From Picochlorum sp. SENEW3 (taxonomy: Eukaryota), in the NCBI GenBank assembly GCA_034226945.1, contig CP120458.1:372001-436000 (forward strand): a DNA stretch of 64,000 bases. The letters run 5' to 3'. Shown one piece after another: positions 9,709 to 64,000 of this stretch. A model generated the notes under the pieces. The model had not been told where the DNA came from. It saw only the letters and a program-made list of their open reading frames with translations, and did not search any database. Both the position numbers and the translations under genes were made by a program. Numbering within the stretch: the first letter of the stretch is position 1; each line of letters opens with the position of its first letter.

Positions 9709-9740
9709 TCATACACACATCTTGCATGATAACCTTCCTG

Positions 9741-19189: not shown

Positions 19190-21775
19190 ATGATTCTTGA
19201 ATTTTCAGGATATCAAGTATCGCGACTATTGACGTATAGTGGGCTGCTGGTGCTCGCAGTCACAGTGCAAGGTAGGTAGCAGTGCTTGTGTGATACATAC
19301 GGATGTTGTGCACCAACCCATCAAGCAATTAATTGGTCAATTGTAGGCTTTGGTCCTGACTTTTACTCCTGTGATCCTGTAAGCTGCCAAGGAACGTGTC
19401 ACTGCCCTTCCTTGTCACCTCCAGGTGGACAAGTGCCTCAGAGCATTCCTCAGTTTGTCCTCATCACCCATGATGACGCCATCTCTCCTCTAGCGAATAC
19501 TGTTGTCCGATCTGTCACAGATGGTTTCAAAAATCCAAATGGATGCAACGTGGTAGCGACGTGGTTCACAACTTCAACTGGCTCACACTGTGATCTTGCC
19601 AAGTCTTTGTATGATGAGAATCATGAGATTGCGTTGCACACCGTGAATCATAAATCGCTTTTACCGACTTTGGCTGACATGGAGAACGAAATTATAGGTG
19701 CTAGACAGGACATGGCAGCTTGTGGAATTCCTAGCGAAGAAATGGTTGGATTCAGATCTCCCTACTTGATCCACAATCCATCCGTGAGAAGTATACTCTA
19801 CAAGCACAAACTCCTGTACGATTCCTCAATCATTGATTTCATCGGTAGTCAGTCAACGACGACAAAGAATTTTGGAAACAGGCTTTGGCCTTACACCATG
19901 GATTTGGGGATCATCCAGAACTGTGCTTGGACAGCACCAGCTGGATCTTGCACAGAGGATGAAGTGTATCCAGGGATGTGGGAGGTTCCCCTGTGGCCTC
20001 TATTAAACGACACTGTTGACAAACCTAACAATGGTAAGCATCATGAGTATGGTTGTTGTCGTGTGATTAAAATACCCTTACCTGTTGTCGGTGATTTCTA
20101 CTGCAGCCTACAGTATGGATCCTGGACCAGGATTTGGCGGGGACCTTTACACAACATTGGTAACAAATTTCGATGAAGCATACAGTGGCAACAGAGCGCC
20201 TTTCCCGCTCTTCACACATGCACAGTGGTTTACAGATGAAAATATTGCAGCGACTCGGAAGTTTATTGATTATGCTCTCAGTAAAGGGGATGTCTACTTT
20301 GTGACAATCAAAGAACTGCTTCGTTGGATGCAGAATCCTGTCTCTGCCACCGACTATAGAAATACGGCTGATTGTAAGCCAGTAGATGTTCAGCCGCCTG
20401 TGAAAAGGATGTGTCAAGTTTATATCGTACAACCTGGAGACTATTTGGAATCAATTGCTGGGAAATTTGGTGTCTTAAATGTGAATGACTTGACAATGAT
20501 AAACCCAATTTTGCAGACTCAGACTTTGCAGCCAGGGGACAGAGTAAATATTCCACCTTGGGATGACACCTGTCCTCCAAGTTCAGAGATAGAAGCAATC
20601 TACACGTCAACAGAAGAAGCATCCGTAAATAAAGCTCCAGTTCCGAGCGTGGATGGACAAGAAGGAACTCCAGATACCCCAGACACTGGGGCAGGAGTGA
20701 CAGGACCAAAAGAGCCTTTGAGCCCAGGAGATGATGAAGTGCCCTCAGATCAAATGCCTACTCAACATTCTGTGGCAGAAAATGAAAGCAATCTCTGTCA
20801 AATCTGGACTGTATCTAGTGGAGAGAATATACAAGGCATATCAAGAGCAACAGGTTCCTCTGAGGAGTCAATCAAAGTCTTGAATGGACTGGAAACAGAA
20901 AGCCTCTCCGTTGGGCAAACACTCAAAATACCCCCTTATGCCGCATGCTGCGATGTCAATGCATGTGGAACAATATCTTTACAACAGGAAGAGATTGGTA
21001 CGAGAGTAGATATCAGTATGAAGCTGGTGGGAAGTCAAAATGTTGATAATCGGGCTCTTGAGCAAATCAAATCTGTCATGGCAAGCGAACTGAACATTCC
21101 AGCTGAGGCTATTTCAGCACAAGTTTTGTCTAGGAGAAGACGAAGAAGGAGTCTTAGACAGGATGATAGCAAAGCAACGACCGTTGTTTTCTCAGTTGCC
21201 ACAAGCACGCCAAGGAGATTGCACAAAAAAGTTTCAGAGGAATTAAGGTATGCATCACTGCAGCTGTCGTTCTTGCTTTATCCGCCCATTATCTTCATAT
21301 CAAACATATTATCTTCTTCATGTTTCGGGAAGTAGAATGAATCGACTTTTACCTTTGTAGGTCTGGAGATCTTGAATCTATTTTGTCTGGGTTGGGTTAC
21401 TCAATGATCAGTATGCCAGTTGTCAAATCATATGAAGACGGAGTGGAAGTATTTCCTGGGACTGAAATGAATGCCGAAGAAACAACTAATACTTCGACAT
21501 TTTGGACCACTCCCGTTATCATTGGGGTTGCCGTTGGAGGCTCTGTTGCACTCCTCGCTGCAAGTTGTCTCGTCGTCTATTGCCTTTTGCACAGAAGGCG
21601 AAAGTCCATCACAACCCAACAATCAGTCGAGACGCAAAATCTACCATCAAGAGCTCCCATGGCAGAAGTTTCTTTGAGGACATCCCATTCAAAGAAATTG
21701 GATCCTTGCGAAATTGTTGTTAACACGGGTTTTGACACACCAACAACCCCAAACAAGAGGACAGCTTTCAGGTGA
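19190..21775 (+). CDS. Membrane-anchored chitin/polysaccharide deacetylase: signal peptide, CE4, 2x LysM, stalk, TM
   Basis: Signal-like exon 1 (MILEFSGYQVSRLLTYSGLLVLAVTVQG). CE4 motifs THDDA, HTVNH, GFRSPYL, YDSS, LWPYTMD, WEVP, NRAPFPLFTH. LysM YIVQPGDYLESIAGKFG and WTVSSGENIQGISRATG. TM VIIGVAVGGSVALLAASCLVVYCLL followed by HRRRK. Introns about 19272-19347, 20034-20106, 21248-21360. Confidence 0.9.
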
Positions 21776-22169
21776 TGGTTTCTTTCTTTTTTCCTTCGCA
21801 CCCATTCTCGACAGTTCCATAGTATGTAAACAATGTCATAAAGAGCTTTTGAAGCATAAGTTGTGGTACGCTCTTGTGGAACTATTATTGCTTGATGCTT
21901 TGCAGCATGCCGTTTCAGACGCGTCAGCATCATTTGCATCATAGTGGCAGGCAGACGATTGATCCTCGCCATCACCTTTATCATAGTGTCGCATCAAATC
22001 TCCCCGTTTATTGAATTAACTCACAATTGAATTCATTTAAAAGCGTCGAATACAATTGAAAGAGCATATCGCGTCCACGCCACGGGAATAGACTCAACGA
22101 GGAACAAGAAACTTGGTTTGTTTCTTGTCAAAGAAGAACGCTACTGTATCTGAATACATCTCCGTAAAT

Positions 22170-24672
22170 ATGTGTGGTAAGAATATTTCAGCGTAATTGT
22201 GGTTTTATTTCGCCAGAATACTCAATCTGCGCGGATGACTCGGCACAGATCTGTATTGCCGTTGGGCGAGGAAATAACTTTCTGACTGGATTCTACTGGT
22301 TGCAGGAATTTTTGGATTTTACTTTTATGATGTACGTGCAAAGAAGCAGTCTTTCGAGCGTTTCGCGCATTGAAATTGCCTGTCCATGAACGAGTTCCAG
22401 CAAGCCTCTGGGACCAACTACTTTTACGAATCCTTTGCAGGTCCGACATTCCAAAAAGCAAATCATGGACACTTTATTCGAAGGTCTTCGAAGACTCGAA
22501 TATCGTGGATACGACTCCGCTGGAATATCGCTGGATCTTCCCGTACAGGTAAGTAGAGAGATTTGGTCCTTGTCAAAATGGACAAAATTGATCCTTTTTT
22601 TGTCTGTATAGAGCCCAGACGAAAGCAATGAGGTGAATAAACCTGTTGTAATCAAAGCGAAAGGAAAGGTTGCTGATCTAGTTGCACTGGTGTCTGAGGA
22701 AATGGATAGTCTTCAGATCGACCAGGATGCATGTGTGACTACTCATGCTGGTATTGCACACACAAGGTGGGCAACACATGGGCCCCCGTGTGCCACAAAT
22801 TCGCATCCCCACGTTTCATCCAGTAATCATGAGTTTGTTTTAGTTCATAACGGTACGATAACAAATTATAGAGCTCTCAAAGAGTTCCTCGTAAAAGAAG
22901 GGGAAGAATTCAGCACTGAGACAGATACAGAAGTCATTCCAAAACTATGCAATTTCTTGTATGGAAAATTACCAGAACCAATACCTTTCCCTCAGCTGGT
23001 TTGCGAAGTTGTCAAGCAGCTTGAAGGGGCTTACGCATTGTTGATTAAATCCTCAGTATATCCAGGAGAGCTAGTTGCATGCAGGCGGGGCTCACCCCTG
23101 ATCCTGGGAATGAAATATGGTATCCAAGGGGGCCCGGCTCCCAAATCACCTGTTTCACCTAACACTCCTTTGACACCAAAGCTGACAGGGTCAACTGCAT
23201 CAGCACCACATTTTCCGGATCAAAGTGGAGGGACACTGGACAATTCTTCCTATGGACTAGAACTATTCCTGGCTTCTGAAGCATCTGCCGTGGTGGAACA
23301 CACGAAACAGTAAGTCTTTTTTATCCTCTGTGTGAATTAAATTGATTCATCCACATATTTTGGTGTGTGCAGGGTGATTTATTTGGAGGACAACGATATA
23401 GTGCATATGAGAAAAGGAGAGTACACTGTGTATAACTGGAATGATGTTGATTCAGCCTCTGTCGAGGTCCGAAGGACGATCCAGACGCTTACGATGGAAG
23501 TTGGTCAGATAATGAAGGGTGGTTACGACCATTACATGCAGAAAGAGATATTTGAGCAGGCCGAGACCATTGCTCAAACCATGCAAGGCCGTATCAAAGC
23601 AACCCCATTATCTCCTATTAAGTTTGGCGTGCCCAATGTTGACAGACTTCTTTATCCGAGGGTAAGATTGGGAGGGCTTGTTGATTTTGTTTCCACGATA
23701 AGACGAAGTCGCCGGATTATATTCATTGGCTGTGGAACATCTTATCATGCTGCACTCTGCTCCAGGCAGACAATGGAGGAACTCACACAGATGCCTGTTG
23801 TGCTGGAATTAGCCGGAGATATCCTTGATAGAAGATGCCCAATATTCCGTGATGATACATGCGTTTTTGTAAGCCAGAGTGGTGAAACTGCAGATACGAT
23901 GCGAGCAATGGAGTATGCCAAGGAAAGTGGGGCATTATGTGTGGGGATTACAAATACAGTTGGCTCAGCAATTGCAAGGAGCAGCCACTGTGGTATCCAT
24001 ATCAATGCTGGTGCGGAAATAGGAGTCGCAAGTACGAAAGCATACACTTCACAAATTGTTGCAATCACCATGATGGCTATTGTTTTGGCAGATGACCAAA
24101 TAAGCAAGAGGAGAAGAATCAATGAGATTGTCGATTCTTTGTTGGAACTTCCTGATGCAATCAAAAAATGCCTGCTGTTAAATGAGGCGATAAGATCCCT
24201 GGCAGAGAGTCTAAAGACAGAGAATTCACTTCTCATGTTTGGAAGAGGTCGCAATTATGCAACTGCCGTGGAGGCTGCCTTGAAAGTGAAAGAGGTGTCA
24301 TACATGCATAGCGAGGGAATCAATGCTGGAGAAATGAAGCATGGACCTTTGGCTCTTGTTGACGAACACATGCCAATTATAGTTGTTGCAACAAAGGATG
24401 AGATGCATGGGAAAATGCAAGGAGTCATACAGCAGCTCATGGCCAGAAATGCAAGGTTGATCATCATCTGTAATGAGGATGAAATAGACATTTTAGACAT
24501 GGTAGGGGATAGGTACCCACTTATTATGGTGCCCAATACGGATGAGGCCCTGCAGCCAGTAGCAAACATTATTCCATTACAGCTATTGTCCTACCATCTC
24601 ACGTTATTGAGAGGTTTCAATGTAGATCAGCCAAGAAACTTGGCCAAAAGCGTCACTGTGACTGAGGAATAG
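22170..24672 (+). CDS. GFAT: Glutamine:fructose-6-phosphate amidotransferase (glucosamine-6-P synthase), 5 exons
   Basis: Spliced N-terminus MCGIFG...GLRRLEYRGYDSAG, then HTRWATHG, VHNG, TDTEVI. SIS domains CGTSYHA, SQSGETAD, VASTKAYTSQ, and C-terminal PRNLAKSVTVTEE. Confidence 0.97.
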
Positions 24673-25332
24673 TAAGAATCTCTTCTTTTACGTGATTCCT
24701 AAGGCATCAAGGAATCTTCAGATATGTTTGCATCAGTCCTGATGATTCTAGAGTAATATCATGTCCTCCCTGCACGGCAGTTGACAAGTATTCGTTTTGG
24801 TTTGGAATAGTGCACATGCGACGTTACAGATGCAGCGATACAGTTTATTCTCTGGAAATACAGGGGACACTGCAGTCGCAGCAACGCCCAAATATACGTG
24901 TTCATGTCATATCTTCTGAGTACACGCATCTATTTTCAATTGAAGAAATGGTCTTGTGTCCAATTTGCATACATAATGTCCCACTGATAGCGCCATTTCT
25001 GCATTTTCATGTGTAACAAATGTAAAGAATCCAATTACTTCAAGATCCCCTTGAGCCAGATATCAGGTAGATGTAGATAGACGTTGTTGTTGGCACAAGT
25101 GCCACAGTACTGTGATGCAGCACGTTGGCCCAACGTCGTTGGGGCCTCGAGGTCACGATACAAATGCAGCTTACATACGTGCCAGTGCTCGCAAATAATT
25201 CGACAAGGGCAAGAATTTTAAAAATATTGACATTAGTCTTCCAAAATTGCTCTCTAGAATCATTGCACCCTAGAATGAGAACGTTCTCGCGGGAAACAGC
25301 GCAGCAGCAGTTACAGTGACGTGTTCCGTACG

Positions 25333-27827
25333 ATGCAGATGCGAAGGATGCCACGCATATCAAGATTTGTCCTTTATTTCTTCCTCTCATGTTTTGGATC
25401 GGACTTGGTGGACGGTACGGTATCTTCTGCTCCGAACGAATGGCTGGCTCTCAGAGAAACTTCGTTAAAGACACTGTCTCATTCTGCAGCGCGTCGGCTC
25501 GGATCCAACCGGTTAAAAATAGAAGAACATTCTAGGTCTTTGAAGCAAGAAGGCTTGTTTCCTCCCGGAGTTGCAGGCATTGTCGTTAACAGTGAAAGTG
25601 AGCTTGCGGAGGCCTTCAGAAACAAGGAGAGGTTCATCAAGCTACGTTCTCATATAATTCTCTCAGGCGACTACGCTGGCGATAAAGCACTGCTTCCTTC
25701 GATCAAAGCCTCCGTAACAATCGAAGCTGATTGTCCCACGCCCTATGATGGAAAATGTATGATAAATGCCCAAGGGTTGGGGCAAATTTTCTTTGCAGAT
25801 AACTCAGCATTTCTTGCAGGTGTTGAGATGTCATTCAACAATATCATTTTTATGAATGGATATGCTTCGAGTTCCCAAGGTGGTGCCCTTGGAAATCAAG
25901 GAGCCATGTCCCTAACTTTCACAAACTGTGACTTTGTGGAGAACTCAGCAGGTGCTGGTGGAGCTCTCTCTTTTGTCGAGGGAGCTTTCCCCGTATTGCA
26001 AGGATGTAAACTAGTTAAAAATGCTGCTGCCACTGATGGATCCGGGTCTGGAACAGGTGGCGCAATTATCATGACAGGTGCTGGGGCATTCTCAAACTGT
26101 AGATTTGAGGGCAACACAGCCCAGAATGGAGGCGCTGTTGGCATTGGTGGCTCTGCTAAATCTATCTTTTTCGATAATTGTGATTTTGTGGTAGGTCAAA
26201 TGTTTCGTTGTTGAGCAAAATATCTGTGGAGAGTGACACACTGTGCTTTTGGTATTTGCATGCAGGACAACGATGCAGAAATTTTTGGCAATGACATCTA
26301 CATGGAAAGTTGGGTTGCGACAGTCGCGTATTTTAATCCTTTCCCCCCACAGGCAGATGTTTACACAAATCCATTAAATATTCAGCCGCTATCTCTAATG
26401 CCGCCGATGTTCTATCCAGATGCCGTGGTCTCTCCACCTCCAGCTCCACCAAATCCACCTAGTCCACCTCCTCCAGCTCCACCAGCCCCTCCAAACAGAA
26501 AAGACTGGATTTATACAGAAGATCAATTATGGGATGCTTTGAACAACGGTAATACAACGATTACCTTGGGGGCACATATCCAATTTGCTCAGCAGGGCAG
26601 ATGGGCTTTCACGCCCCCTCCTCCAATCTTATCCGAGGTCAGGGTCTATTCCATGTGCGAGGGCTATGGGTCCACATGCATTATAGACATGGCTGGTTCT
26701 CGCTTCCCGCTATTTGATGTAAGGACTGGAGGGATCATTGAAGTGTATAACGTTAGAATGATGAATGCAGCAACTACAGGAGACGGTGGAGTGGTTCAGC
26801 TTAGTGCACCGCAAAGGGCAATTTTTGATTCATGTGCTTTTGTGGGGAATTATGCATCTAATGGTGGGGCAATTAATATAAAGGGCTCCCAGAATTCAAT
26901 CATGTTCAGGAATTGTGAATTCAATTTGAATTGGGCTGATTCAAAAGGTGGGGCAGTGTACCTTGTAGGGTCAGCAGTACACTTTGATGGATCCTCATTC
27001 TACCTCAATCAGGCCAACAGTGGAGGAGCTATTGCAATGGGCCCTGGGTCGACTGCATATATCTTAAATGCGAATTTCACGAATAACAAAGCAGCAAAGT
27101 GGGGCCAGGATGTTTTCCTGACCACACCAGTGGGATCAAAAATTTATCTCAACCAATGGCCTCCAGAGAAGGTAATGCAAGTCTTCCCTCGTCAATCTGT
27201 GATTGAATGGTATTATGCGCCACCACCCATGCCACCTTCGCCGCCCTCACCTCCACCCAATTTCAAGAGGGCACCATATCCGCCTCCTGGGCCCCTGCCC
27301 CCTGCCAGGCAAAAGAATCCACCACCAAGGTAAGATCAAACACACAAATGATACTTCAACGTGCTGTATAAGTCTTCAATAATCTTTATGCTTTGTGCAG
27401 TCCGCCCAACCCTCCCCCTTTCCCGCCCCCAGCACCTCCTTCTCCTCCAATGGACAACTTGGTTAAAGGGCCTCCCATCATGTGGGGTGCGATCTATACA
27501 ACTGGTATGCTAGTCATCCTCATGGTTTTTCTCATCTACGCAGCAATAAACCATAAAAAATATTTCCCTCGCGTGAGAAACCCAGAGGAGTTGCGTGCAA
27601 GACTTGCAGGAGAATATGAGGCATCGTCAGATGAAGACATCTCTGTTGCTGGTTATTCTGACATCAGTGATATTGACGAAGATTTGGCGCTTGCTGAAAT
27701 ATATCATGAACAGAAAAGGGAAGAAGAAATTCTCGGTTCCGTAGCACATGAGGAGGCCCTGGAAGCTCCATTAGAGGCAAATATTGATGCATTGAAGCAA
27801 TACAGAAAGCATGAAAAGACAATGTAA
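25333..27827 (+). CDS. Type I membrane protein with two right-handed beta-helix (pectin lyase-like/Pmp-repeat) blocks and Pro-rich extensin-like linkers
   Basis: Signal-like N-terminus, repeated GGA[I/L/V] and FxxN motifs, SPPPP-rich segments, TM WGAIYTTGMLVILMVFLIYAAI and an acidic tail. Introns 26191-26265 and 27330-27400. Confidence 0.8.
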
Positions 27828-28115
27828 ATCATTCCCTCCCATCCTTCGAAGTCAATCCTCCAACCTGCTTAAAGTGATGAATTGATCTATGAAGCAAGAA
27901 TCTTGAAATGAGGCACGCATTGTGACATGTTCTAGCATGCTGGGCATGTGCAGATGACAGGGTCATTTGACATTCTCGTTGACCAGAAAATCCCATCAGT
28001 TGACGCGCACATGGCCTTCTACTCGGGTAACATCAGCTCACCATCAACAAAGAAACTGTTATTATAAAATAATTTGCCTCAATAAGAGGGATAGATTAAA
28101 TTACTATCCGGGAAT

Positions 28116-28605
28116 ATGCGACAAGCGGACGGGGAAGATTGCCAGACTTCCCGTGGGAGCCTTTTTGAGTCTCGCCCCGATATAGAAGCGATAGACAAGC
28201 TTCTGAGAGAGCAAGAATCCATAGAAGAAAGGAAAAGGGAGGAGAACTCGAAGAAATGCATCCTCGATCAGGAGGTACGCCACTGCGTGAATGGTTTCTC
28301 GTTGGCAACCAATTCTCGCTGACAAAATTTGCAAATGCATGCAGGCGACTCTATTAAGTGAGCTACTGCACCAAGCATTAAAGAGAGTACAGGAGCTTGA
28401 CTCGGAGATTGGTACAACAATGTCTCAAATCTTCGAACGGCAGAAGTATAACACAGCAGTGGAGACTTTGTTTGATGAAGAAGCAGACAAGGGAAGGAAG
28501 ATGAGTGAAACTCTCAGATCGATGGAGATACATGAGGCCGAACAAGTGCGCCTCATTGATGCGATTACTGATCATCTGGATAGTAGAGGGATTTCAATTA
28601 CGTGA
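28116..28605 (+). CDS. Hypothetical short coiled-coil protein, 2 or more exons
   Basis: Charged heptad-like ORFs 28116..28322 and 28291..28605 can be joined by a GTACGC...TGCAG intron. No family recognised. Confidence 0.45.
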
Positions 28606-28693
28606 TTCTTTGAGTTGCTTTTGATAGAATCACATGTGGAATAATGTTTAGGATGTATCAGGGGATACTGAATTCAAACTCATGGGAGATGTT

Positions 28694-33647: not shown

Positions 33648-33665
33648 TTTTGCCTTCACCATCTA

Positions 33666-38647: not shown

Positions 38648-40355
<1,708 letters not shown>

Positions 40356-44019: not shown

Positions 44020-44928
44020 TTTTCTCTAACTACTAGTCGCTCCCTAGAAATAGTCGAGAGTACCTGCAAATTCGCATAGCATGGGGTCAAAAATATACCA
44101 GCAGTGGCAACCAGACCTGGACTAGTCGTGTACGACAGCCACGACTCTCAGGTTGGATGGATAGACTATACCATGCATCAATATGTACACCCCAAACCAT
44201 TACAGTGCTACTTCTAGCCATACAATCCCCAAACAACTCGCTGATACACACCATGGATCTCCCCTTCAAAATTACCATTCACCTGTCCAACCCTTTCAAC
44301 TTGAGAGGTCCTCTTTACCACAATAAATAAATATAACCTCGTTCAGTAGTATCCCCGAGTGAAATACGCACCTACTCCCCAAAGAATGCCTTGCCAAAAA
44401 ATCGCCCACGGGCCTTTCAATCTCTTTCCAAGAGCTCACTAGGTAGCCCAGGTTAGATACAAAGTCCACTTTTATCAATATATGTAGATCAATGGTGCAA
44501 ATTGAAACCAACTGCGCTCTATGGTTCTATAGAACAGTTCTGGAGGCGACACTGTGGCAAAACGAATCAGCCAAGCCTTGCGTTCTAGAACACCAATCCA
44601 AGGACAGATATTGAGAAATTTACTTCTCTTAATTCATGGAAATTGCAATAGGCATCAGCGGTGTTGATCTGTAATCATGATGATGAGGACCACGGCGTGG
44701 CATCCAATTGGGCTGCAGGCAGCCCTCTCGGAGAGGGCTCAGATCAAGTCATATTGAAATCCTTCAAAAGGGCATTGAAGCATCTCATGAGATGAAGAAG
44801 AGTGCTGTCAGAATCTTGAATAGTCTGTTCTGAATACAAATATTGCACTATTTGTGAGAGAACTACAAGCAACAGGCAGACTGTCGCACTCGGTGTATAT
44901 TTATGATACGAGACTGCGGCTTTACTGG

Positions 44929-45600: not shown

Positions 45601-45608
45601 TTGGATAC

Positions 45609-51708: not shown

Positions 51709-51824
51709 CTCAGGCGAGAGAGATGGACCCCGAGACTAGCATCTTCCACGCGTAGAGCCAATGCTTAAGTTGTATAACAATTCTTGTAAAGAAACTATCT
51801 TATTGCTAACATTGTGCAAGCAAA

Positions 51825-54345
51825 ATGAGTGCAAGCACGAAATTCTCGTACTTTCTGATCGGACTGATCTTCTGCCTTGGACGTGCCCAAGGTGGTGAAG
51901 CTCCAACCGTTGCCCATATCAAGGAATTGGACAAAAACAATTTCGAGGAGTTCGTCTCCAACAGTCAATACGCACTGGTGAGCGAATCTGCCTGATTTGC
52001 TGCACTTGTTTGTCCAAGATTTCTCACTTGCTGTCATGCTTCTTCTGTTACAGGTTGAATTTTACGCTAACTGGTGTGGATATTGCCAGGTATCGCAATC
52101 AACTGCTGTGAAAAACCATAAATGAGTGTAAATATTTGGTCTTTTATGCAGGAGTTTGCACCAATTTACGAGGAAGCGGCACGAAGGCTTGCAGAACTGA
52201 ACACCTCCATCTTGGTGGGCAAGGTGGATGCTCCAGAGAATGAGGACCTGGCTGATCAATATGAGATCGATGGACTACCAACAGTTCGATGGTTTGTCAA
52301 TGGAAAGGACGAGCATGAGTATTCCGGTAGCCATAATATGTAAGGCAAAATGTTTGTACCCAACAAAAGTCTCTCTCTTGACTTGGTACTCACTGAATTT
52401 CATGTGTTGGGCGCAGCGATTCCTTCATGAGATGGATTAAAAAAGTGATGACTACGCCAGCGGAGGAAATCAAGACAGAGGAAGATCTTGAAAGATCTCA
52501 GGAGAATGCACTCTCGATAATTGGTGTCTTTGATGAATATTCTGGAGAGATCTACGAAGGATTCATGGGCCGTGCGTGTTACGATGACAGATATAAACAT
52601 CGAAATAGATAGATACTCATTATATTTTTTATGCCAAATGTGCTGCAGTTGCCATGTTCAGTGAAGATGTGGTGTTTTATCGGACAACCAACAGGGATCT
52701 TGTGCAGGTTGAAAAGACTCCAGGTAGGAATAATACCTGATTTTGCTGCCAGATGGGCATGTATCTAAATAAGATGTCATCTATTTGCAGGGCTTGTGTT
52801 CAGCAAAAACATTTCTGGACATCCTTTTGAAGTCATCAGAAAAGCATTGCTGGTAAAGGGTATGTAATTTGTTCCCTGCTTCACGATTGTCACAGTTGTA
52901 CATGTCTATTCATGAGCTACGACACATGATGCATCATGCTGGAATGCAGAAGATGAATTAGCTGAGAATGAAATCTATGATTTCATAGATGCACACAAAT
53001 ATCCAGATTATTTCACGTTTGAGGCAGATACACTGGAGAATATGACAGAAACGCTGGAAAAAGTGGATAGAGAATTCCATGTGCGTAGGTTTTGTGGAGA
53101 CCAGTTCCCCTGGTGCTGAAATATTTAATAAATACTTACATGGCTCATTGCACTTTGCTGCAGATCCATCTAGTAGTGAATGAGGAGTCACTGAGAGATG
53201 CCAACTTTTTGGAACTGGTCAGGGAAGCTGGTAAAGGTGTACGTGAAGGCCTAATGAACTAGTATCAATACATTGTCTTTTCTCACTGAACGACATGCTA
53301 TGATTACAATGTAGATTCAATCCAAATGTGTTCTGATCCTCTCGATTTTGGATGCGAAATCGCCACTAATGGACTCATTCCAGGTTAAGAATATCAGTAG
53401 TATTCAGGTAATCTAATCTTGCTCGAGAAGACACACATTCACTATATGACGCACTGACTGGGTATCTCTCCACATATCTGCAGATTTTTGCTGCACAAAT
53501 GCAATCTATCCGGAAATACAGCATGGACCCCCTTGACTCGAAGAAGTTTGATCCTGATACTGTGATTGCTTTTTCAAAGAGCATTACCTCTGGCGATACG
53601 AAATATCGTCAGTATGCGTCAGGTCTGTTCTCCTTGTTCCTGATGCATTATAATAGAATAGTATCGATTTCTGAGACATACATTTCGATGATATGCAGGG
53701 AAAATACCTGAGAATCAGTCTGAAAATGGAATAACCATTGTGGTTCGAGACACATTGGATGCAATCGCCAAAGATCCAGAAAAAGATGTTCTCATGCATG
53801 TGTATCAACCAGAAGATGACGAATCAATTTATATCAACTCTGATTTGGAAAATCTTGCCAAGGCGTTAGCGAATATCTCATCCATTGTACTGTCAAAGTT
53901 TGATGCCTCTGTCAATGAGCACAAGGACATTGACTATTCATTCGAGGTACGTTCGTGCGATCGAAACTCGTGATCGACGCCATTATCATGTTATGTAAAG
54001 TTTGAACTACTATATTCCCCGCAGGAGCTTCCAAAAATTGTCTTGTTCCCAGCCAAACAAAATGCAAAGCCAATCGTCATGGACACAACTGAAGGAGCAG
54101 ACGTCCAGGTATGACAAACTCATTCAGCAGAGTATGTGTGCATCGCACCTGTCTACATTTACCATTTGAGTATCTTTATGCAGAGTATGGCTACATTTGT
54201 CGAAGAACAAGCGGCAATCAAGTTCAATTTGCCCAGCTTAGAACAGTACATTCGTGAGGATGAATATGATGAGTACTCAGCCACGGAGGAAGATGATGAC
54301 AATGTCGCTGATGCCGATGTCAGTGGATCTCACGATGAATTATAG
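51825..54345 (+). CDS. ER protein disulfide isomerase-like protein, about 13 exons
   Basis: Signal peptide, VEFYANWCGYC, GKVDA, YEIDGLPTV, thioredoxin-like repeats, acidic tail ending HDEL*. Confidence 0.85.
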
Positions 54346-54439
54346 TCATCCAAATGATCCTAGTATGTATTCAGAATTATATATGTAATTATCTGATTGA
54401 TATCCTGGTCAAAGGATACCTTTTGGCACTCTCGTCACA

Positions 54440-55885
54440 ATGGGTATTCAAGTGCGTGTTTGTCTCTTTACCCTTTGAACCCAATACTCGCACATATTTA
54501 ATAAAGCACTATTTTAATTGCATCAGGGTCTCACAAAGTTGATTCAGGATCACGCACCAGCTGCGTTGAAAGAGCAAAAATTTGAAAATTATTTTGGAAG
54601 GAAGATTGCTGTGGATGCTTCAATGCACATATATTCCTTCTTAGTGCGTGATAAAATCACATTGAAAGCTTTTTAGATAGCATCCAGGTCATAATCTTAC
54701 GTTGCCTTGTGTTTTATGCAGGTCGCGGTTGGGCGTACTGGCGACCAGCTATTGACAAATGAAACTGGCGATGTTACAAGGTAGGATGCCTCGGATGCGT
54801 GTAGTGTAGATAGCAAAGTCGTGATATAACACATGTGTACGTGTAGTCATATTCTGGGCATGTTTTTCCGGACGACAAGGATGTTGGAAGCAGGTATAAA
54901 GCCAATGTATGTGACCATTGCTGTTAAAGTGTTTCATGTTGCTCCCACTTCTGAGGCATAGGATTTCTCTTGGTGTAGATTCGTATTCGAAGGAAAAGCC
55001 CCAGATTTAAAAAAGGAAGAGTTGGCCAAAAGAAGTGCAAGGAGAGAAGGCGCGAATGCTGAATTGGAGGCTGCCAAGGAGGCTGGGGACAAGGAAGGAA
55101 TAGAAAAGTTTTCAAAGCGGACGATTCGAGTCACACGAGAGCACAATGAGGATTGCAAGAAGCTCCTGAGATTAATGGGGATTCCAGTGATTGATGCTCC
55201 GTCAGAAGCTGAGGCGCAGTGCGCCCAACTTTGCAAAGAAGGCCATGTCTATGGAATTTCCACCGAGGATATGGACTCATTGACGCTAGGAACTCCCAAG
55301 TTGCTACGTCATCTAATGGCTCCAGCTGCCCAAAAAGTATCTGTTCTAGAATTTGACCATGATATGATATTGAAGGAGCTCGATTTGACAAATGATGAGT
55401 TTATTGACCTTTGCATTCTCTGTGGGTGTGACTACACATCCAAAATTCAGGGTATTGGTCCTGTGAGGGCGTTGCAACTGATTCGAAAGCACAAATGCAT
55501 CGAAAAGATTATCGAAGAATTAGATCCTACCAAGTATAAAATTCCTCAGGACTTTCCATACAAGGAAGCAAGAGAGCTTTTCAAAAGTCCAGACGTCCTG
55601 AAGCAAAGTGACATTCCTCCTCTCAAATGGAGAACTCCTGATGAAGAAGGTTTAATGGAATTTCTTGTGAAAGAGAAACATTTCGATGGTAAGAGAGTCA
55701 AGTCTGCTCTGACTAGAATAGCTGCTGCAAAGAGCAAGAGCACTCAAGGGCGTCTAGAAAGTTTTTTCGGACCTGTCTCTGTGAAACAAAGTTCCCGAAA
55801 GCGAGAGGCAAGCAAGCCGGCCACAAGCAAGGCGACTGCCAAGAAAAAGTCGAAATTAGGGAAAATCGGTGGAAGAAAAAATTGA
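54440..55885 (+). CDS. FEN1: Flap endonuclease 1, multi-exon
   Basis: MGIQ|GLTKLI...[43 protein letters not shown] box QGRLESFF. Confidence 0.97.
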
Positions 55886-55926
55886 ATGGAATGCAGCTTG
55901 GTCGTTGATCACAGAAGGCCAAGATG

Positions 55927-56046
55927 ATGAGCTAGCTCATAGACATCAGTCTAGACACTGCACTCGTGTCCAGCGCTAGCGCTGGAGATCTCCGCGGAGA
56001 TCTAGATCTCCTCAATCCTGTTGGGTACGTACCCACTCTCCAGCGC
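55927..56046. repeat. Cluster of perfect short palindromes and an inverted repeat
   Basis: ATGAGCTAGCTCAT (55927-55940), TCCAGCGCTAGCGCTGGA (55969-55986), AGATCTCCGCGGAGATCT (55986-56003), GGAGATCTAGATCTCC (55996-56011), TGGGTACGTACCCA (56022-56035). A 10-bp inverted repeat pairs 55979-55988 with 56037-56046. Confidence 0.95.
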
Positions 56047-56422
56047 AAGCCGATGCGAACATACAAGATATCCTAACCTTTGCACGACGCATGCAAATAT
56101 TAAAGATTTTTCATTTGCTTAAAATAGTAATCAACGGATACACAACGAAAGAGGGAGGTCCACCGTTGTTTGTAACAGACATTCGTAGATCTCCGTTAGG
56201 CGCAACACGGTATCGCACCCTGACGCTGCTCACATACATTTACCACTCGTGTGCCATTAAAAGTATCAAAAAGGTACGTTTACATGTTTGTATGAGAGAA
56301 AGGTGTGATTTCATCTGTATGTGAAGCAACGACGATGATACTGTGTAACGGTCGGGTAACCGCTCTGGTTGCAGGTTCCAGCATTTTGAGCACGAGACAC
56401 GAAGGAACATTTTGGGCTTGTA

Positions 56423-58443
56423 ATGCTCCTTCAAATGATCATTAATATCATGTTGAATTTATTGAAGCTCAGCAGAGGCGTCAGTTGCATCCTCACCATC
56501 CTTTTTTGTCAGGGTCTTGTCGTAGTGCTCTCTGCCCCTGATCAGGTTCCACAAGATGACATTGTACAGAGGGGATTTTGTGAGCGATATACCGTTGAGG
56601 CTGGAGAAAGCGCATTGAGCATTGCGCAAAAGTTCCATGTCGAGTACGAAGACTTTGTTATAGCTCTCAAAGATTGTATTGGTTATGAGGAGGGAACATT
56701 TCTGCAAGTAGGGCAACAAGTTTGTCTCCCTCCTTACTCTCCAGCTTGTAGGTTTGTCTCAGAAGTCGATAAAAATGATAAATGCAAGTTGTATGAAGTT
56801 CAACATGGCGATACCCTAGCAAAGATAGCAGAGTATTTTGACATTGGCCTTGAAGACCTGGCTTCTTTGAATTTGCTTAATCTGACCACAACAGTGGTGC
56901 CTGGGATGAATCTATTGCTTACCTGGGACCAAAGCTGTCCTGAAACTCTTCTGCCAACTCAGAGTGATGTAAATTCATGCCAACACGGAGACTGTGATGT
57001 TGAGGAATCTCTGGGTTGCAAAATTCACATTGCAGCTGAAGGAGAGAGTCTGGAGACTATATCTGCTCTTTATAATGTGACTTTAGACGTTTTAGTCCAA
57101 AATAATCCCAACCATCAGAAGATTGAGCCTGGTGGGGAAATTTATATCCCTCAAGGGGGTGAAGGGTGTCAGGAGCAAGTTCAAGTGAGGCCGTACGTGA
57201 CTTGTATGAGGAAATGTCGTCATCGACTGTCTACCTATCTTTTTTGACTATTCATTCGATTTTGTAGGACTTCTGAAGCTGTTTCTGTGGAGGTACTTGC
57301 CCCAAAACCCTCGGACCACGTTTCCACTGATGTTCCTCAGAGTGGACCTGACCCTCCTTCTTCTGTTTTAAACCCCCCAAACCTTGAGGTAACGCCTGAC
57401 TTGTCCCATGAAGAAAAACTTGTGGTTGATATGATGATCAATCGTATGACCAAGAAAGAGTTTCAGCAAAAGCAAATGGAGTATTCAGTCAACTTAGCAT
57501 TCTCCACTAAAGTGCCAGTCTCAGCTGTGAATATCCGATTCGGTGCGCTATATCTTTTTCACATGAAAGCACCAAGATACCTTGATACCTAACTAAATGT
57601 ATTTTTATGTGTCTTGCAGTCCTTCCGGTGACAGGTGAGGTACAGGGTAGGAAATTGTTGTCTGAAAGTCAACTGAAAGTAGATACTGCAATATTTGGAA
57701 ACAAATCTCGAATTTACGACAATTTGGCGTCATCAATAGAAAACGGCGCATTGATAATGCAGATGAGAGAAGACAGTTTCGACATTTTGAAAATTACGGT
57801 GGTGTATCCAGAGGATGAGATGCAGGTCCTCTACAATCCAGGCGAACTCCCAATGGAGAGTGAGAGCAGCAGCAGTTCATTACCACTCCCAATGGGTGCA
57901 CTCATCGGAATATCTGCGGGTGGAGCTGTCATGATTGTTTTAGTAGTAGTCTTGTGCTGCTGTGCATCTGCCAGGAAAAGACAGAAAGCCCTTGTGCAAA
58001 AGGAAAAGATGCAAAAACAAATCACTGAAAACTCCACTGGTTCAAAACAATCTTCCAAGACAAAAATAGACCTCCAAGCATTTTCCCCATACAATGGTGA
58101 TGTTTTGGGTACTAACATAGTAATACCTGTAGATCTGTCAGGAAAACCAATCAAGACATACATAACAGGTGCAGGCAGGTGCCAGGCCAATGGTAATAGT
58201 GAGACTGCCGTGCCCCAAGAAGTCCTTGATCGAGTATATCAATATCAAGCAGCTGGCAAATTTAGGGTACATGATCGAATACAAAGCTCCCAAAGGGCCG
58301 CTAGTCACCATGCTCTCCTGAAAGAGGAGACGAAAGGCCCAGCAACTGGCCAGCGCAACGAGAGAACAAAAAGCAACTCAAAATTACCTGCAGCAAGCAA
58401 CACACCTAGGGTGTCAAGTTTATCTCGATATATGGAGCTGTAA
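56423..58443 (+). CDS. LysM (x3) type I membrane protein, 3 exons
   Basis: Signal-like N-terminus. LysM YTVEAGESALSIAQKF, YEVQHGDTLAKIAEYF, HIAAEGESLETISALY. Pro-rich stalk, GRKLL, TM ALIGISAGGAVMIVLVVVLCCC, and a cytoplasmic tail with no kinase domain. Confidence 0.87.
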
Positions 58444-58837
58444 AATGTGTTTTGAATACCTACTCGGCAACTCCCTCTCAATGCGAATGTGCGCTTCCAC
58501 ATTCACAAGTCTCATCACAGGAGAAGTTCATGACCTCGTGGCCCTGGATTCCAGGCAACGCGTTAAACTCGATGCGCACATACGTGGCAATCGGCGCAAC
58601 GAAAGATACTTTCTTTTATTAAGAAAATTATTAGAAGTATTTTCTTCGAGGTTATCATCAAAGGTACGATATTCAGGAACCCTGAGTGCCCAACGCGATG
58701 GCGGTTGGCCTGCTGCGTCAAGGCGGCAAAGAGTGTTCAAATGGGATCTACAACGTCTCAGAACGTATTGAAATTTATAAAAGTTGGTGAGAATGTCTTA
58801 ACAAAGCGTGAAATGAATTGTGCCGTGCAGACGAGGG

Positions 58838-60223
58838 ATGAGATCTGTAGCATTTGCGCTTGCTTTCTGTGCAGTTACTGGAGTTCTTGCTCAAACTCGT
58901 GCGTTTTGTTTATTATATGAATACATAGATGAATAAAAGTGAAATTTGAGAGGAAATACCTCGCTAAGGTGACGTTTTCTAACCTGAAGCACTGTGGCTC
59001 TGCAGCCGTATGTCCTACTTACGTGGTTCAGGCAGGGGACTCCTTGTTCAGTATTCAGCAGAAATTTGATATTCTGTCACCAGGTATGTTCAATATCTTT
59101 GAGTATCGATATCAGGGGCGTATTTTACCTCGTGAATATGTCTTGCAATGTAGATGACTTGACAAATGCCCTTCTGGCCTGTGGACAGCAGACTGACCTC
59201 CTCCAAATTGGTCAAGAGATTTGTCTCCCAGGTGCAGACAAACCTGGGTGCGCAAATGTGAGGTCATACAATAATGATGACAACTGCAAGGTGTACATTG
59301 TTCAGCAGGGTGATACCATTGAGTCTGTCGCAAACAGTTTGGACATATTCCGTGATACGCTCGACAATTTGAACAAGGATGTGCAAGCCGGGGGTATTTT
59401 GCAGCCAAACAAGTACTTGAAACTCCCTCCTTGGTCCAATCAGTGTGGCGATCCCAACAAGTCAGGCGAGTCATGCAGGCTCTACATCGTAAACAGTGGT
59501 GATTTCATTGCTGGCATTGCAGCTGCCTATGGAGTGACAGTTGATGACCTCCTCTCCGTTAATCCTGGGCTGGACGCGAACTCCGTTCTTCAGAATAGTC
59601 AACCTATCAAGATTCCACCCTTCCCTGCGAGTTGCGGGGCTGGAGTTCCATCCAAACCTCCCACTGACACAGTTTTGAAATGCAGGGGTTACAGAGTCCA
59701 GCAAGGTGACAATATTCAGCAGATTGCGCAAGCTTTCAAAACAACAGTGAATGACATCACTGCTGTCAATCCTGAATTGTCTGGAGGTGCATTAGTGCAA
59801 CCTGGTACAATTGTCAAGATCCCCCCATATGATAACACGTGTGACAAGCCAATCTTGGTTCAGATTGATAATGCAGGGGCCAACCCACCCCCCAGCGGTG
59901 GTGCCACACCAGTCCCAGTCCCAGTCCCAGTCCCGGTCCCGGTTCCAGTGACAAATCCTTCGCCAGTTCCAATCCCAGTTAGCAGACCATCTCCTGTGCC
60001 AGTGCCAGTCAGGGTGCCATCCCCATCCCCATCCCCGTCCCCATCTCCCTCTCCAGCACCCGAACCAATCGCATCAGAACCTGAATCTGCAGATTCCCCA
60101 GCACCAGCCGTTGTCATTGCTTTGGCACCAGAGATTGCTCCAACTCCTGCCCCAAGTAGTTCTCCAGGAGTGCACATAGTGGCATCTGCAGCCATGAGCA
60201 TTCTTGTATTCTTGTTCTTTTGA
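58838..60223 (+). CDS. LysM (x4) secreted protein with PV/PS-repeat stalk and GPI-signal-like C-terminus, 3 exons
   Basis: Signal MRSVAFALAFCAVTGVLAQT. Introns 58899-59005 and 59084-59153. LysM YVVQAGD, YIVQQGD, YIVNSGD, YRVQQGD. Ends PSSSPGVHIVASAAMSILVFLFF*. Confidence 0.9.
59908..60055 (+). repeat. Coding hexamer repeats (CCAGTC)n and (CCATCC)n encoding PV and PS dipeptide repeats
   Basis: Directly visible; encodes an HRGP-like stalk. Confidence 0.9.
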
Positions 60224-60976
60224 TGGTATCAGTAATGGATTTTATTTTACTTGAGTAAGAGCAAGTGTCTGTAATAGGGAATATATCTAAACATCAATGG
60301 CGCATCCCGGTGTATGTATGCCACCACGCTGCCTAGAGCTGTAGGTATATTCTTCCATGCAGCTGCAATATGGTGCAATCAAAGATTTGGGTTGCACCCC
60401 ACATGAATATGTGCAGTTATAACTGGTACATAATGGTACCCGAAGTCAAGTGCACTTCTAGAAAGTATCAAGAGAAAATTCATGCAGCGTGTTGCTTTCT
60501 TGCAAGCAACCTTGAATCCGTTTCAAGATGAAACCTGCACTTCACACTTTATGCCTGGTCTATGTAGTGTCCTAAACATCTCCCTGTTCACTCATCTCTT
60601 CCTCGATGACAGCATGCCCTTGGTATCTACCGCTCATTTGTCTCGGGCACTTGGAGACCTCCAATCAGCACAGCACAGCAGTCCATCTTCAATGGCCATC
60701 TAGTCCCTTCCTTGGATCGAGCCGACCGGATCTGCATACTGCGAGCAACGACGGTTTGGCGCCCGTCATCATCCACGAAGCACGAGTCTCGTATAGAATT
60801 ACAATCCAGTGAGTGTTTCAATGTCATAAGATTAAAACTTTGAGTTCCGAAGGTCCGAAAACTCTATCTATTCAGGCGTTAACCTGGTAGGTGCTGACAC
60901 GAGCAGTTGCTGTGTGTCTTAGTCACGATACTATCTCTTGTTGTAACCGCCACAAGCAACAATATTTATTCTCGCA

Positions 60977-63900
60977 ATGGCTCATAGTGAGAATATGAAT
61001 GAAGACATAGGTACGTCTGGAGGCGATCCTGAATACCGTGTGACACTTCCCCGGGCTGGACGCGGTTTCCCCGTCAAGTCCGTAGGAGGCGCGGTTCATT
61101 GCAAGGACCCTGCGAACAACGTCTGATAAAAAAAGTACACAATCATTAGATGCAGGACAGGAGTTGCCTGACCTGCTGGTGGCGAACACCGACGTCACCA
61201 TACAGTCTCCAATTGACGAATACTACCAGAACCTTGCGTTAAGGCTGGAGGAGCTCAAGACTGAGTTTACGAAAGTTGAGGCGAAAACAGGCAATGAACA
61301 GACTTTTGAAGATTACATTCAAGGTGATCGGGAGTTTGCCGAGGGTGTTCAACAGAATAGCCAGCGATATTACGATGCACTCAAAGTTCTTAGGGCTGAC
61401 ACACAAATATTTTATCCAGTTCCCAGTGAAGTGTATCGGGACGAATGGGACGATGTCATCATGGATGATACTATGGAATATACACATTGTCGATATACTC
61501 CAGTCGTCACAGAAGATGCCCGTGACTTTGGAATTGATGGATACACTTTAAGACTGCAACGAGAAGACAGGAGGATTCGCTTAATGATTTGCGTAACGTT
61601 GTACAACGAAGATCAAGATACTCTTCGGAAGACATTGTTGGGCATATGTGATAATTTGGAAGTGTTGTACGAAAAGTTCACTCTTGCTGATGGAAGAAAG
61701 GGGCTGGATTGGCAAGAAGTTGCAGTGTGCATAATACAGGATGGGTTGCCCATGGCAGATCAATCTGTCATCGCTGCAGCAACGGTGCAAGGATTTTTTT
61801 CCCCGGTTGTTCTTCAAAATGATGTGCTTGGGACACCAACATCCTTGCACTTGTTTGAATACACTGCCAGATACAAGAAGCATGCAGGTATTGACAATTA
61901 TCCCCCATTGCAGGTAGTTTTTGCTACCAAATCAAAAAACAAAGGAAAATTGGACTCTCACTGTTGGTTTTTTGACGCCTTCTCTTATTTAATTCAGCCC
62001 GAATACTGTGTATTGTTTGATGCTGGGACAAGGCCCATGCCGAATGCATTGAAGGCAGTCTGTACACATTTTCAAAGGTATCCTAATGTTGGAGCACTTA
62101 CAGGGGAACTCAAGGTTGAGAGACCATACAGAACTTTCCTTGCTTCCGTTCAATTCTGTGAGTGGAAGGTATCTCACTTGTTGCAGAAACCAATTGAGTC
62201 CATCTGTGGATTTCTTACTGTCTTGCCTGGGGCTTTCTCAGCTTTTCGATGGCTGGCAATTGATGGAGAGCCCCTTCGAAGGTATTTCTATGGTCTCTAC
62301 TCCCAAGCAGAGCTGAATGCTTTTGAAGCCAACATGTATCTGGCAGAGGATAGGATTTTGTGTCTTGAAGTGGTTGCAAAAAAGGGGTGCCAGTATAGAT
62401 TAGAGTATGTCAAAGAGGCTGTTGCTGAGGCAGATCCAGTCACAAGGCTCGTAAATTTGATGAAGCAGAGACGTCGATGGCTGAATGGCACATTTTTCGC
62501 CATGCTCTATGCGTTGGGTAATATGAGCCGAATCTGGTCGGAATCTGGACACTCGTTCATGCGGAAGCTTGTCCTCACCACTGAATTCATCTATTTGACA
62601 TTGGTGACTTTGGTAGGAACATGGTTTGGCATCGGTATCTTCTTTGTGATGCTTACAACTTTACTGGAAGTCGCATTCACTGGACCAGGGTGGCTTCAAT
62701 CGATTGGTTATGGAGTTGAACTGCTCTATCTGTTCCTCCTTGTGACTGAGTTGATAATCAATCTAAAGAACAAACCTGAACCCGTCGAAAAGGTTCGTCT
62801 CCTTTTGTTTCTTTTCTTTTGAGCGAGTATGATGATCATGCTTTTCATTTTGCAGATACATTCATTCTGTGCAATCTACTTTGCGCTTTACATGCTGGTG
62901 TTTACTGGTGTCACGATATCATTCTTCATTACAAACTCGACTTTCACTTTTGCAAATGTTTCCTCAGATAAGCTTGGACTGCTTGTTGTCTTGCTGATGA
63001 GTGCTATTGGAGGTATTCTCCTGACTGCCTTGCTTCATGGAGATTTAGTGCAAGTGCTATGCTCTGGATTCCAATATTGGCTCATGGTGCCAACATTTTT
63101 CAACATTTTGCAAGTCAATGCTTTCTGCAATGCGGATGATATTTCATGGGGGACAAAGAACTTGGACAAGAGGGGAGATCACGAGGCTGTCAAAACTCAG
63201 TCAAAGAAGCTCGCATATCGTGTTCGGCCGACTCAGGCATCTCGTGCATTCTGGAAGGCGATGGGAGATCTTCAATCCCATTTATTTGACCAAGAGCAGG
63301 TGAAAAAGTACAATGCTAGAAAAGAGGCCAAGTTAAAGGCATTTGCCTCTTACCTTCTCATTGCGTGGGTTGGATCAAATATCATATTGGTTTCAATCAT
63401 CCTGATTGTCTCAAAAACAACATGGGAAGTTTGTGCTGTGACAGAATCGCAGTTGGCAGTATCAGCAATAAGATCTCAAGCAGATGACTATGATAAAGCC
63501 CTAGCAATAGCAGACTTGGTTCAAACAGCAGCAACAATTCTCATGAGAGGATCACAGCTGTATCCATTTGATGGCTTACAAGGCTTTCCGCAAGCGTATC
63601 CCATGTTGGTGAGTGGTGATGCTCAAGCAAATGCAGCAAGAGGGTCAAGGGTGACAGTTCTGGCAAATGCTACAGAAATGTTCAACAACCTTGACCAAAG
63701 CATGCCTAAATTCGAGGACTGGCTGGCAGAATCAATGGGTATTAATGCATCCGCAACGCTTGAAGAGTTTGAGCAAATATGGATACCAATGCCATCGAAT
63801 ACTACAGGTTTCGATACATCAGTCACCTGCAAAGAGGAAAATGGGTACACCTATTACCTGCAAGCACAGTTCTTACTTCTGATGATAATTGTCTGTTTCC

Positions 63901-64000
63901 AGGTTGGAGGGTCCATTATCTTTATCATTTTCACCTGGTGGAGAAGATTCACTGGAGCAGCGTTTGGCACTGGCTTCGGGCGCATTCCAGAAGGTGCATT
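60977..64000 (+). CDS. CHS: Chitin synthase (GT2, division-1/fungal class I-III/oomycete-like), partial at 3' end
   Basis: VTLYNED, KNKGKLDSH, LFDAGT, VLPGAFSAFRW, YLAEDRIL, QRRRWLNG. After intron 62793-62855 the frame reads AFCNADDISWGTK and stays open to 64000. First exon 60977-61010 is inferred. Confidence 0.95.

Follow-up and report, generated by a model that had tools for sequence, protein, structure and literature searches.

The window analyzed here, i.e., the whole stretch of 64,000 nucleotides from contig CP120458.1 of Picochlorum sp. [quoted passage not shown] Based on gene content and on comparison with related loci, the interpretation somewhat favored is that these genes form a loosely linked, evolutionarily old neighborhood of chitin/chitosan-type wall genes in a Picochlorum-like alga of the Chlorellales. 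All six are located on the + strand in two blocks of three adjacent genes each, block 1 at 19.2–27.8 kb and block 2 at 56.4–64 kb. In order, the genes of block 1 are:

19190–21775, + strand: membrane-anchored chitin deacetylase of the CE4 family with LysM domains, 774 amino acids; exons 19190–19271, 19347–20033, 20107–21247 and 21361–21775

22170–24672, + strand: GFAT, 712 amino acids, beginning MCGIF; exons 22170–22176 (7 nt), 22306–22331 (26 nt), 22441–22548, 22612–23309 and 23373–24672

25333–27827, + strand: PMP-type right-handed beta-helix surface protein with a membrane anchor, 782 amino acids; exons 25333–26190, 26266–27329 and 27401–27827

Block 2 comprises, again in order:

56423–58443, + strand: LysM membrane protein (LysM-TM) with signal peptide, LysM repeats, juxtamembrane region, transmembrane helix and cytoplasmic tail

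58835–60223, + strand: secreted, Pro-rich LysM protein with signal-peptide exon, about four LysM repeats, Pro/Ser/Val-rich stalk and hydrophobic C-terminus

60977–64000, + strand: division-1 CHS (GT2), truncated at the window end by about 75 residues

Linkage around the chitin synthase in related algae

A scan of metagenomes with an algal CHS alignment retrieved 14 loci (L001–L014) from 103 pattern matches; the short and distant loci L012–L014 were left out of the counts. In a quick LG+G4 tree of 23 rows, all green-algal CHS sequences were placed in one clade (Shimodaira–Hasegawa-like approximate likelihood ratio test, SH-aLRT, 100) with three subclades. Clade A comprised the window sequence, the 90% cluster containing a Picochlorum renovo protein, Chlorella sorokiniana CHS1 and L004, clade B comprised Parachlorella, two Micractinium species, Chlorella vulgaris and L005, and the third subclade was a pair of sequences. 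C. sorokiniana and C. vulgaris are split between clades A and B, which therefore probably represent old paralogues.

Of the 14 loci, seven were A-like (L001–L004, L006, L008 and L010), and at least 4 kb of upstream DNA were available only in L002, L003, L004 and L010. Including the window, LysM coding sequence was found upstream of CHS in all five informative clade-A loci; in L003 it adjoins CHS on the opposite strand. The window order LysM-TM, LysM, CHS is repeated in L002, and L004, with a CHS 69% identical to that of the window, shows the order NHX, FEN1, LysM, CHS, collinear with the window. The weakest case is the intron-rich, C. sorokiniana-like L010, which yielded partial LysM matches only (Pfam E 7e-6 to 5e-4; tblastn E 2e-4 to 8e-3). 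In L003 (CHS 93% identical), the region is rearranged: an orthologue of the beta-helix gene (67–73% identical) is located 8 kb upstream of CHS, the second LysM gene adjoins CHS in inverted orientation and the LysM-TM gene, likewise inverted, is found 6 kb downstream. Despite this rearrangement, the beta-helix gene and both LysM genes are all within 10 kb of CHS.

In both clade-B loci with upstream DNA (L005 and L011), a PMP/beta-helix gene was located directly upstream of CHS on the opposite strand. For L005, this gene was identified by Chlam_PMP (Pfam E 4e-6) and by tblastn matches down to 3e-22, and for L011 by a tblastn match of 3e-11 and two weak Chlam_PMP matches. The two non-algal CHS loci with flanking DNA (L007 and L009) contained neither a LysM nor a beta-helix gene.

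Further observations were made at two of these loci. An IWS1-like gene (window 311–1285) and the beta-helix gene (window 25279–27827) both have their counterparts within 10 kb upstream of CHS in L003; the region is thus reshuffled within the genus, with these two genes kept on one stretch. Between the beta-helix gene and CHS of L003, a thioredoxin-domain gene was detected (Pfam), comparable to the PDI-like gene of the window. About 1.2 kb downstream of the clade-B CHS of L005, a Polysacc_lyase_14 gene is encoded (8600–9952, - strand; E 1.4e-10), PL14 being the family of the chlorovirus wall-degrading lyase.

Linkage was also suggested by locus tags of annotated genomes. Parachlorella kessleri carries CHS as N2152v2_000470, GFAT as _000479 and the beta-helix orthologue (52% identical) as _000480, the source records being equal in size. 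The tags of Micractinium tetrahymenae are ABPG75_001602 for the beta-helix orthologue, _001615 for CHS and _001616 for a PMP paralogue (28%), and those of Chlorella vulgaris are D9Q98_009499 for CHS and _009511 for the beta-helix orthologue. Assuming that tags follow gene order, the adjacency of GFAT and the beta-helix gene is common to the window and Parachlorella, and CHS is 9–13 genes away in the three genera versus 17 genes in the window, where GFAT and CHS are separated by 36 kb. Furthermore, source records of equal size were noted for five pairs of GFAT and beta-helix orthologue (14331, 46835, 441071, 9716 and 12887), one pair of GFAT and PMP paralogue (260464), two pairs of CE4 and GFAT (7958 and 29946) and one pair of GFAT and CHS (104455), which suggests that the members of each pair share one contig.

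An initial annotation of this DNA had taken the linkage to be meaningful and had proposed inspecting synteny in relatives. As judged from the metagenome loci and from locus tags in Parachlorella, Micractinium and Chlorella, evidence that is partly indirect, the linkage is conserved: the same kinds of genes are linked to CHS in Picochlorum-like contigs despite rearrangement, and in distant Chlorellales. The claim has to be narrowed insofar as the conservation is partly shared with the housekeeping neighbors NHX and FEN1 in L004.

Gene identities, transcription and layout

Every gene named in the initial annotation was recovered by Pfam at its position on the + strand, and the two-block layout was likewise confirmed. 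In the deacetylase of block 1, a signal peptide is followed by a CE4/NodB domain and two LysM domains, and a juxtamembrane region leads to a single transmembrane helix with a short tail. The open reading frame (ORF) at 19280–20176 matched Polysacc_deac_1 (PF01522; E 8.4e-08, 32.7 bits versus a cutoff of 23.1), and the ORF at 20067–21335 matched LysM in two stretches (E 2.5e-16). All three GT..AG introns were taken from spliced metatranscriptome contigs, and the resulting model is open with a single final stop and has a transmembrane helix at residues 689–707 according to a hydropathy scan. Its identity as a LysM-bearing CE4 deacetylase, as originally proposed, was upheld; the RNA contig joining 21247 to 21361 added that the protein is also membrane-anchored. 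CE4 enzymes are characterized by the signature motifs Asp-Asp, His-x-x-x-His and Arg-x-Pro-Tyr. The corresponding THDD, HTVNH and RSPY are intact in the spliced model and align to TFDD, HSISH and RIPF of 5z34, the best solved relative (E 1.6e-19), which is labelled 'chitin deacetylase'. Domain and motifs together place the protein in the CE4 family.

For GFAT, the ORFs at 22612–24672 matched GATase_6 (3.5e-16), GATase_7 and two SIS domains (4.8e-60). One intron (22549–22611) was taken from a spliced RNA contig, and the other three were placed, as predictions, from homologue alignment and GT..AG ends. The start MCGIF, with the catalytic Cys after Met, was recovered only by joining the first exon of 7 nt, which carries the Met and Cys codons and a single further base, to the second of 26 nt, so that the N-terminal Cys, found together with the GATase domain and the two SIS domains expected of a GFAT, depends on the first two homologue-derived introns. 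Database models of the close relatives P0188, P0192, P0193 and P0199 begin downstream and are devoid of the catalytic N-terminal Cys; these predictions are probably truncated.

The representative of a cluster holding a transcript of Picochlorum sp. RCC944 shares 82% identity with the window GFAT. Parachlorella encodes two GFATs, of which _000479 is 80% and _010525 is 59% identical to that of the window. In a quick LG+G4 tree of 35 rows with weak deep nodes, the window sequence, other Picochlorum-like sequences, Parachlorella _000479 and Helicosporidium formed one clade (SH-aLRT 99), and Parachlorella _010525 grouped with Micractinium, Coccomyxa and Chlamydomonadales in another (SH-aLRT 96). 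In this sequence tree, the linked GFAT represents a distinct paralogue clade.

The third protein of block 1 begins with a signal peptide, continues with two beta-helix modules and Pro-rich linkers and ends, after one transmembrane helix, in an acidic cytoplasmic tail; both introns of its gene were taken from spliced RNA contigs. The ORFs at 25279–27333 matched Chlam_PMP (22.5 bits, cutoff 20.6), and Beta_helix remained under its cutoff (19.9 versus 25.9 bits). An AlphaFold model of exon 2 (mean predicted local distance difference test score, pLDDT, 80) features a right-handed beta-helix of stacked short strands at residues 98–295, and the nearest Atlas clusters are Chlam_PMP/Beta_helix surface proteins (score 0.93). 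Chlam_PMP repeats and a parallel beta-helix fold thus coincide in this protein, as is typical of the PMP type. Orthologues with at least 50% identity are, where named, all green-algal, and weaker relatives include prokaryotic Chlam_PMP proteins. In a Foldseek search of the PDB with the model, no solved structure reached E ≤ 0.001; 9cdu came closest (4e-3), and beyond the threshold only generic beta-helix proteins were listed. A beta-helix polysaccharide lyase, hydrolase or epimerase was considered and rejected, pectate lyases reaching only 0.02–0.1 at template-modelling (TM) scores of 0.3–0.4 in the same search. Because no structural match was obtained at E ≤ 0.001, the protein was not classed as an enzyme. 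It may represent a surface scaffold or binding protein, and this model-based assignment is the least certain part of the interpretation.

Contigs of one marine metatranscriptome run were placed on 18400–28600. Six GT..AG joints were detected, three in the CE4 gene, one in the GFAT gene and two in the beta-helix gene, each represented by one contig at a depth of about 4, indicating that every gene of block 1 is transcribed and spliced under natural conditions. The DNA runs X12 and X14, which originate from near-identical strains and are uninformative about deeper synteny, match block 1 collinearly at about 97% identity. The behavior of run X10 was that of DNA.

Within block 2, the ORF at 56390–57247 matched LysM (E 4.7e-18), and the ORF at 57586–58443 is transmembrane and matched no Pfam family. 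A single ORF of 745 amino acids in a relative (L003:18408–20642, minus strand) aligns to both, and the first LysM gene most likely has the second ORF as its 3' portion. An open spliced model of this gene, predicted to contain introns at 57193–57267 and 57543–57619, encodes 622 amino acids. For the secreted LysM protein, which is 81% identical to L002:3124–3834 and 63% identical to its counterpart in L003, LysM was detected in the ORF at 58988–60223 (E 3.3e-26); the ATG of the signal peptide is located at 58835, and the first LysM exon (59002–59076) is in another frame. A GPI-type (glycosylphosphatidylinositol) anchor is predicted for this protein. LysM scores in the three window genes were 59.8, 65.3 and 91.4 bits (cutoff 20.9), and family membership suggests binding of N-acetylglucosamine (GlcNAc) polymers. 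The two LysM surface proteins of the initial annotation were retained with regard to their domains, the transmembrane ORF being provisionally reassigned to the first of them. In both the CE4-LysM protein (20107–21775) and the LysM-TM protein (57268–58100), a region of about 100–150 residues lies between the last LysM domain and the transmembrane helix, and neither region has a Pfam match.

The CHS gene was identified by Chitin_synth_1 (PF01644; 3.2e-42), Chitin_synth_2 (PF03142; 9.6e-21) and Chitin_synth_1N (PF08407; 23.7 bits, cutoff 22) in the ORF at 61086–62822. Its reading frame is intact up to the window end and is interrupted by one in-frame intron of 63 nt (62793–62855), visible as a 21-codon gap in the alignment; a short first exon likely begins at about 60977. 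The protein is 88% identical over residues 2–938 of a relative with 1013 amino acids, and 88–91% identical to a protein whose 90% cluster contains the Picochlorum renovo protein. Chitin synthases carry the catalytic motifs EDR and Q(R/Q)RRW. In the window protein, LAEDRIL and QRRRWLNG align column for column with the solved chitin synthase 7wjm (E 8.3e-87), and both are invariant in nine algal CHS sequences. The Chitin_synth_1 core, the Chitin_synth_1N region and these motifs assign the enzyme to division 1, and by family it is predicted to produce chitin from UDP-N-acetylglucosamine (UDP-GlcNAc).

The 64-kb window is densely packed with about 33 genes, has a G+C content of 41–49% and contains short GT..AG introns of 63–129 nt. 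Its first 19 kb consist of housekeeping genes, and the two blocks are separated by a further gene-rich stretch:

28694–55885, both strands: spacer of 15 genes without a link to chitin (Pfam; the PDI-like gene was read by eye), namely DEAD helicase, PDH E1, SDR, Fe-S assembly, RabGAP-TBC, kinesin, enolase, WD40, Pro-rich protein, Tim17-family, TrpRS-type synthetase, oxysterol-binding, Na/H exchanger, PDI-like and FEN1

Interrupted by these 15 unrelated genes, the chitin-related set is not a contiguous gene cluster, and its earlier likening to a wall biosynthetic gene cluster overstates contiguity, given the approximately 28 kb of housekeeping genes between the blocks. Within the spacer, the PDI-like gene (51800–54350) has a low G+C content (0.41), no long ORFs and many exons; read by eye, its pieces resemble a protein disulfide isomerase of the thioredoxin fold with a terminal HDEL. 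An ORF of 711 amino acids (41890–44025, - strand) has no Pfam family and contains an unbroken run of about 25 prolines.

Proposed function and alternative explanations

According to knowledge of the protein families, the encoded GFAT would synthesize glucosamine-6-phosphate, the committed step towards UDP-GlcNAc, which the division-1 CHS in the plasma membrane would polymerize, extruding the growing chain. Attached to the polymer through its two LysM domains, the membrane-anchored CE4 enzyme would deacetylate nascent chitin towards chitosan, and the two LysM proteins (one transmembrane, one probably lipid-anchored) together with the beta-helix protein would bind or organize the polymer at the cell surface. 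All four accessory proteins feature signal peptides (read by eye) and membrane or lipid-type anchors, with one transmembrane segment each in the CE4-LysM and beta-helix models according to the hydropathy scan; these features place them where a plasma-membrane synthase extrudes its product. The order of the biochemical steps and the roles of the LysM and beta-helix proteins are predictions from sequence. Selection, e.g., for a shared timing of daughter-wall synthesis, rather than inertia may keep the genes linked. A farther-reaching proposal is a selectively maintained 'chitin wall supercluster' of the Chlorellales, in which the GFAT paralogue, the LysM-CE4 enzyme, the LysM anchors and the beta-helix protein would have stayed near either CHS paralogue since before the split of Picochlorum, Parachlorella and Chlorella. 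In this proposal, which is tentative and rather doubtful, the beta-helix protein would be a hitherto unrecognized obligate partner of algal chitin synthesis (e.g., organizing or anchoring nascent fibrils), and the GFAT would channel precursor specifically to the wall.

Several results weigh against an old functional neighborhood. The blocks are about 28 kb apart, and neither GFAT nor CE4 was found within 10 kb of CHS in any metagenome locus retrieved. Locus-tag order and equal record sizes are indirect evidence of linkage. A CE4 gene beside other chitin genes is less surprising because the CE4 family is very large (1475 representatives at E ≤ 0.001), and GFAT is not chitin-specific because N-glycans and GPI anchors also draw on it. 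Moreover, a literature search found no Picochlorum wall chemistry. The co-regulated module suggested in the initial annotation is hypothetical: in a crude k-mer scan of the 400 nt upstream of 28 approximate gene starts, no 7- or 8-mer was common to all six genes, the best 7-mer being present at 4/6 targets and 5/22 others. Since housekeeping neighbors are conserved too, ordinary synteny could explain part of the signal. The genes might merely be neighbors in the Chlorellales ancestor that have not yet been separated, independently regulated and without selection for linkage, an explanation judged to be unlikely on balance. It agrees with the collinearity of NHX and FEN1 with LysM and CHS in L004, with the PDI/thioredoxin and IWS1-like genes near CHS in L003, with the 15 housekeeping genes between the blocks and with the missing upstream motif. 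It accounts less well for a linkage that survives the changes of gene order and strand in L003, for a chitin-related or surface-protein neighbor beside CHS in both paralogue clades, and for a separate GFAT paralogue that adjoins the beta-helix gene in Parachlorella as well as in Picochlorum-like DNA.

The chitin genes could also have entered an ancestral trebouxiophyte as one piece from a virus or another donor. According to the cited passages, vertical descent does not readily account for division-1 CHS in Chlorella and Picochlorum (PMC5122149), and a chloroviral source of Chlorella chitin metabolism is quoted as a hypothesis (PMC7019647). Chloroviruses carry a synthase–GFAT pair, and beyond green algae the matches of the beta-helix protein (E 1e-20 and weaker) are, where named, mostly prokaryotic Chlam_PMP proteins. 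However, none of 26 pattern matches in a scan of viral contigs was confirmed as division-1 CHS, and viral synthases match Chitin_synth_2 only. For GFAT, an alignment scan yielded 114 viral relatives, of which the 80 kept are 31–41% identical to the window protein (two loci at 34–35% in a single-protein scan), versus 59–66% for other green algae, and viral copies were rejected as a close source. In addition, the quick tree, with its weak deep nodes, places the linked GFAT clade among the GFATs of green algae. A joint acquisition is accordingly considered improbable. Even less credence is given to the view that the genes lie close together by chance in a compact genome rich in LysM and CE4 paralogues. 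The gene density, the size of the CE4 family and the selection of the finding after the fact speak for it, but the same linkages recur in independent lineages, and in Parachlorella three specific genes fall within 11 consecutive tags of more than 10,500, for which a probability of ~3 x (10/10525)^2 = ~3e-6 was calculated for three randomly placed genes if tags follow gene order. An old, loosely linked neighborhood of wall genes remains the interpretation preferred here.

Comparison with known systems

The glucosamine-rich rigid wall of Chlorella-type algae, on which the digestibility, transformation, virus attachment and harvest of industrial strains depend, is poorly understood with respect to its genes. 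Accessory genes suggested for it by the conserved linkage are the second GFAT clade, the LysM-CE4 deacetylase, the two LysM proteins and the beta-helix protein. If the preferred interpretation holds true, the region would represent a rare long-lived functional gene neighborhood in a photosynthetic eukaryote.

The rhizobial nod genes combine the same three enzyme families in a bacterial operon, NodC being a GT2 chito-oligosaccharide synthase, NodB a CE4 deacetylase and NodM a GlmS/GFAT paralogue, i.e., a dedicated extra copy of the GFAT type. Their product consists of short signalling oligomers, not of a wall polymer, and the two systems are likened by family only. Fungal clusters provide a eukaryotic parallel: the cited passages describe cda1–UDP-GlcNAc 6-dehydrogenase–chs8, chs4-csa1 and chs5-chs7, with co-induction reported (PMC7053769). 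There, too, a chitin synthase, a CE4 deacetylase and a nucleotide-sugar enzyme share a conserved neighborhood. As far as described in these passages, the fungal clusters differ in being contiguous, in containing a dehydrogenase instead of GFAT and no LysM or PMP beta-helix genes, and in that chs8 belongs to division 2 ('virus-like'), whereas the window CHS belongs to division 1.

The presence of division-1 CHS in Chlorella and Picochlorum was already published (PMC5122149, PMC4471660), and the cited passages also report chitin-like glycans in relatives (PMC7019647) and a glucosamine rigid wall of Chlorella vulgaris (PMC9962006). A literature search, with the primary Chlorella genome paper and supplementary material outside its range, found no paper on the linkage of these genes in an algal host. 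Compared with the known chitin set of Chlorella variabilis NC64A, physical linkage, the second GFAT clade and the beta-helix partner are unmentioned in the cited passages. CHS as such is thus known from Chlorella-type algae.

A close parallel in arrangement is provided by chloroviruses. In Paramecium bursaria chlorella virus 1 (PBCV-1), the hyaluronan synthase gene a98r adjoins the GFAT gene a100r, according to the cited passage (PMC5408694). In three viral records of 327–369 kb, GFAT is directly preceded by a Chitin_synth_2 GT2 gene on the same strand, and genes for PBCV-specific domains are found nearby. Chloroviruses other than PBCV-1 carry chs. Just upstream of the synthase–GFAT pair, the three chlorovirus-sized records contain a GH16 gene and a gene combining a PBCV-specific basic adaptor with an ADP-ribosyltransferase-exoenzyme-like domain (L086:1382–2662, L094:956–2254 and L096:1348–2628, - strand). 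The viral and algal genes are not orthologous: the GFATs of the three records are 34–36% identical to that of the window, and the viral synthase is devoid of Chitin_synth_1 and Chitin_synth_1N. Furthermore, the viral pair is about 100–150 bp apart, whereas 36 kb separate the algal GFAT and CHS, which are accompanied by CE4, LysM and beta-helix genes. Common to both is a physical link, in the setting of Chlorella-type algae, between precursor supply by GFAT and a UDP-GlcNAc-using GT2 synthase. If the preferred interpretation is correct, the host alga would mirror the synthase–GFAT pair of the viruses that infect its relatives.

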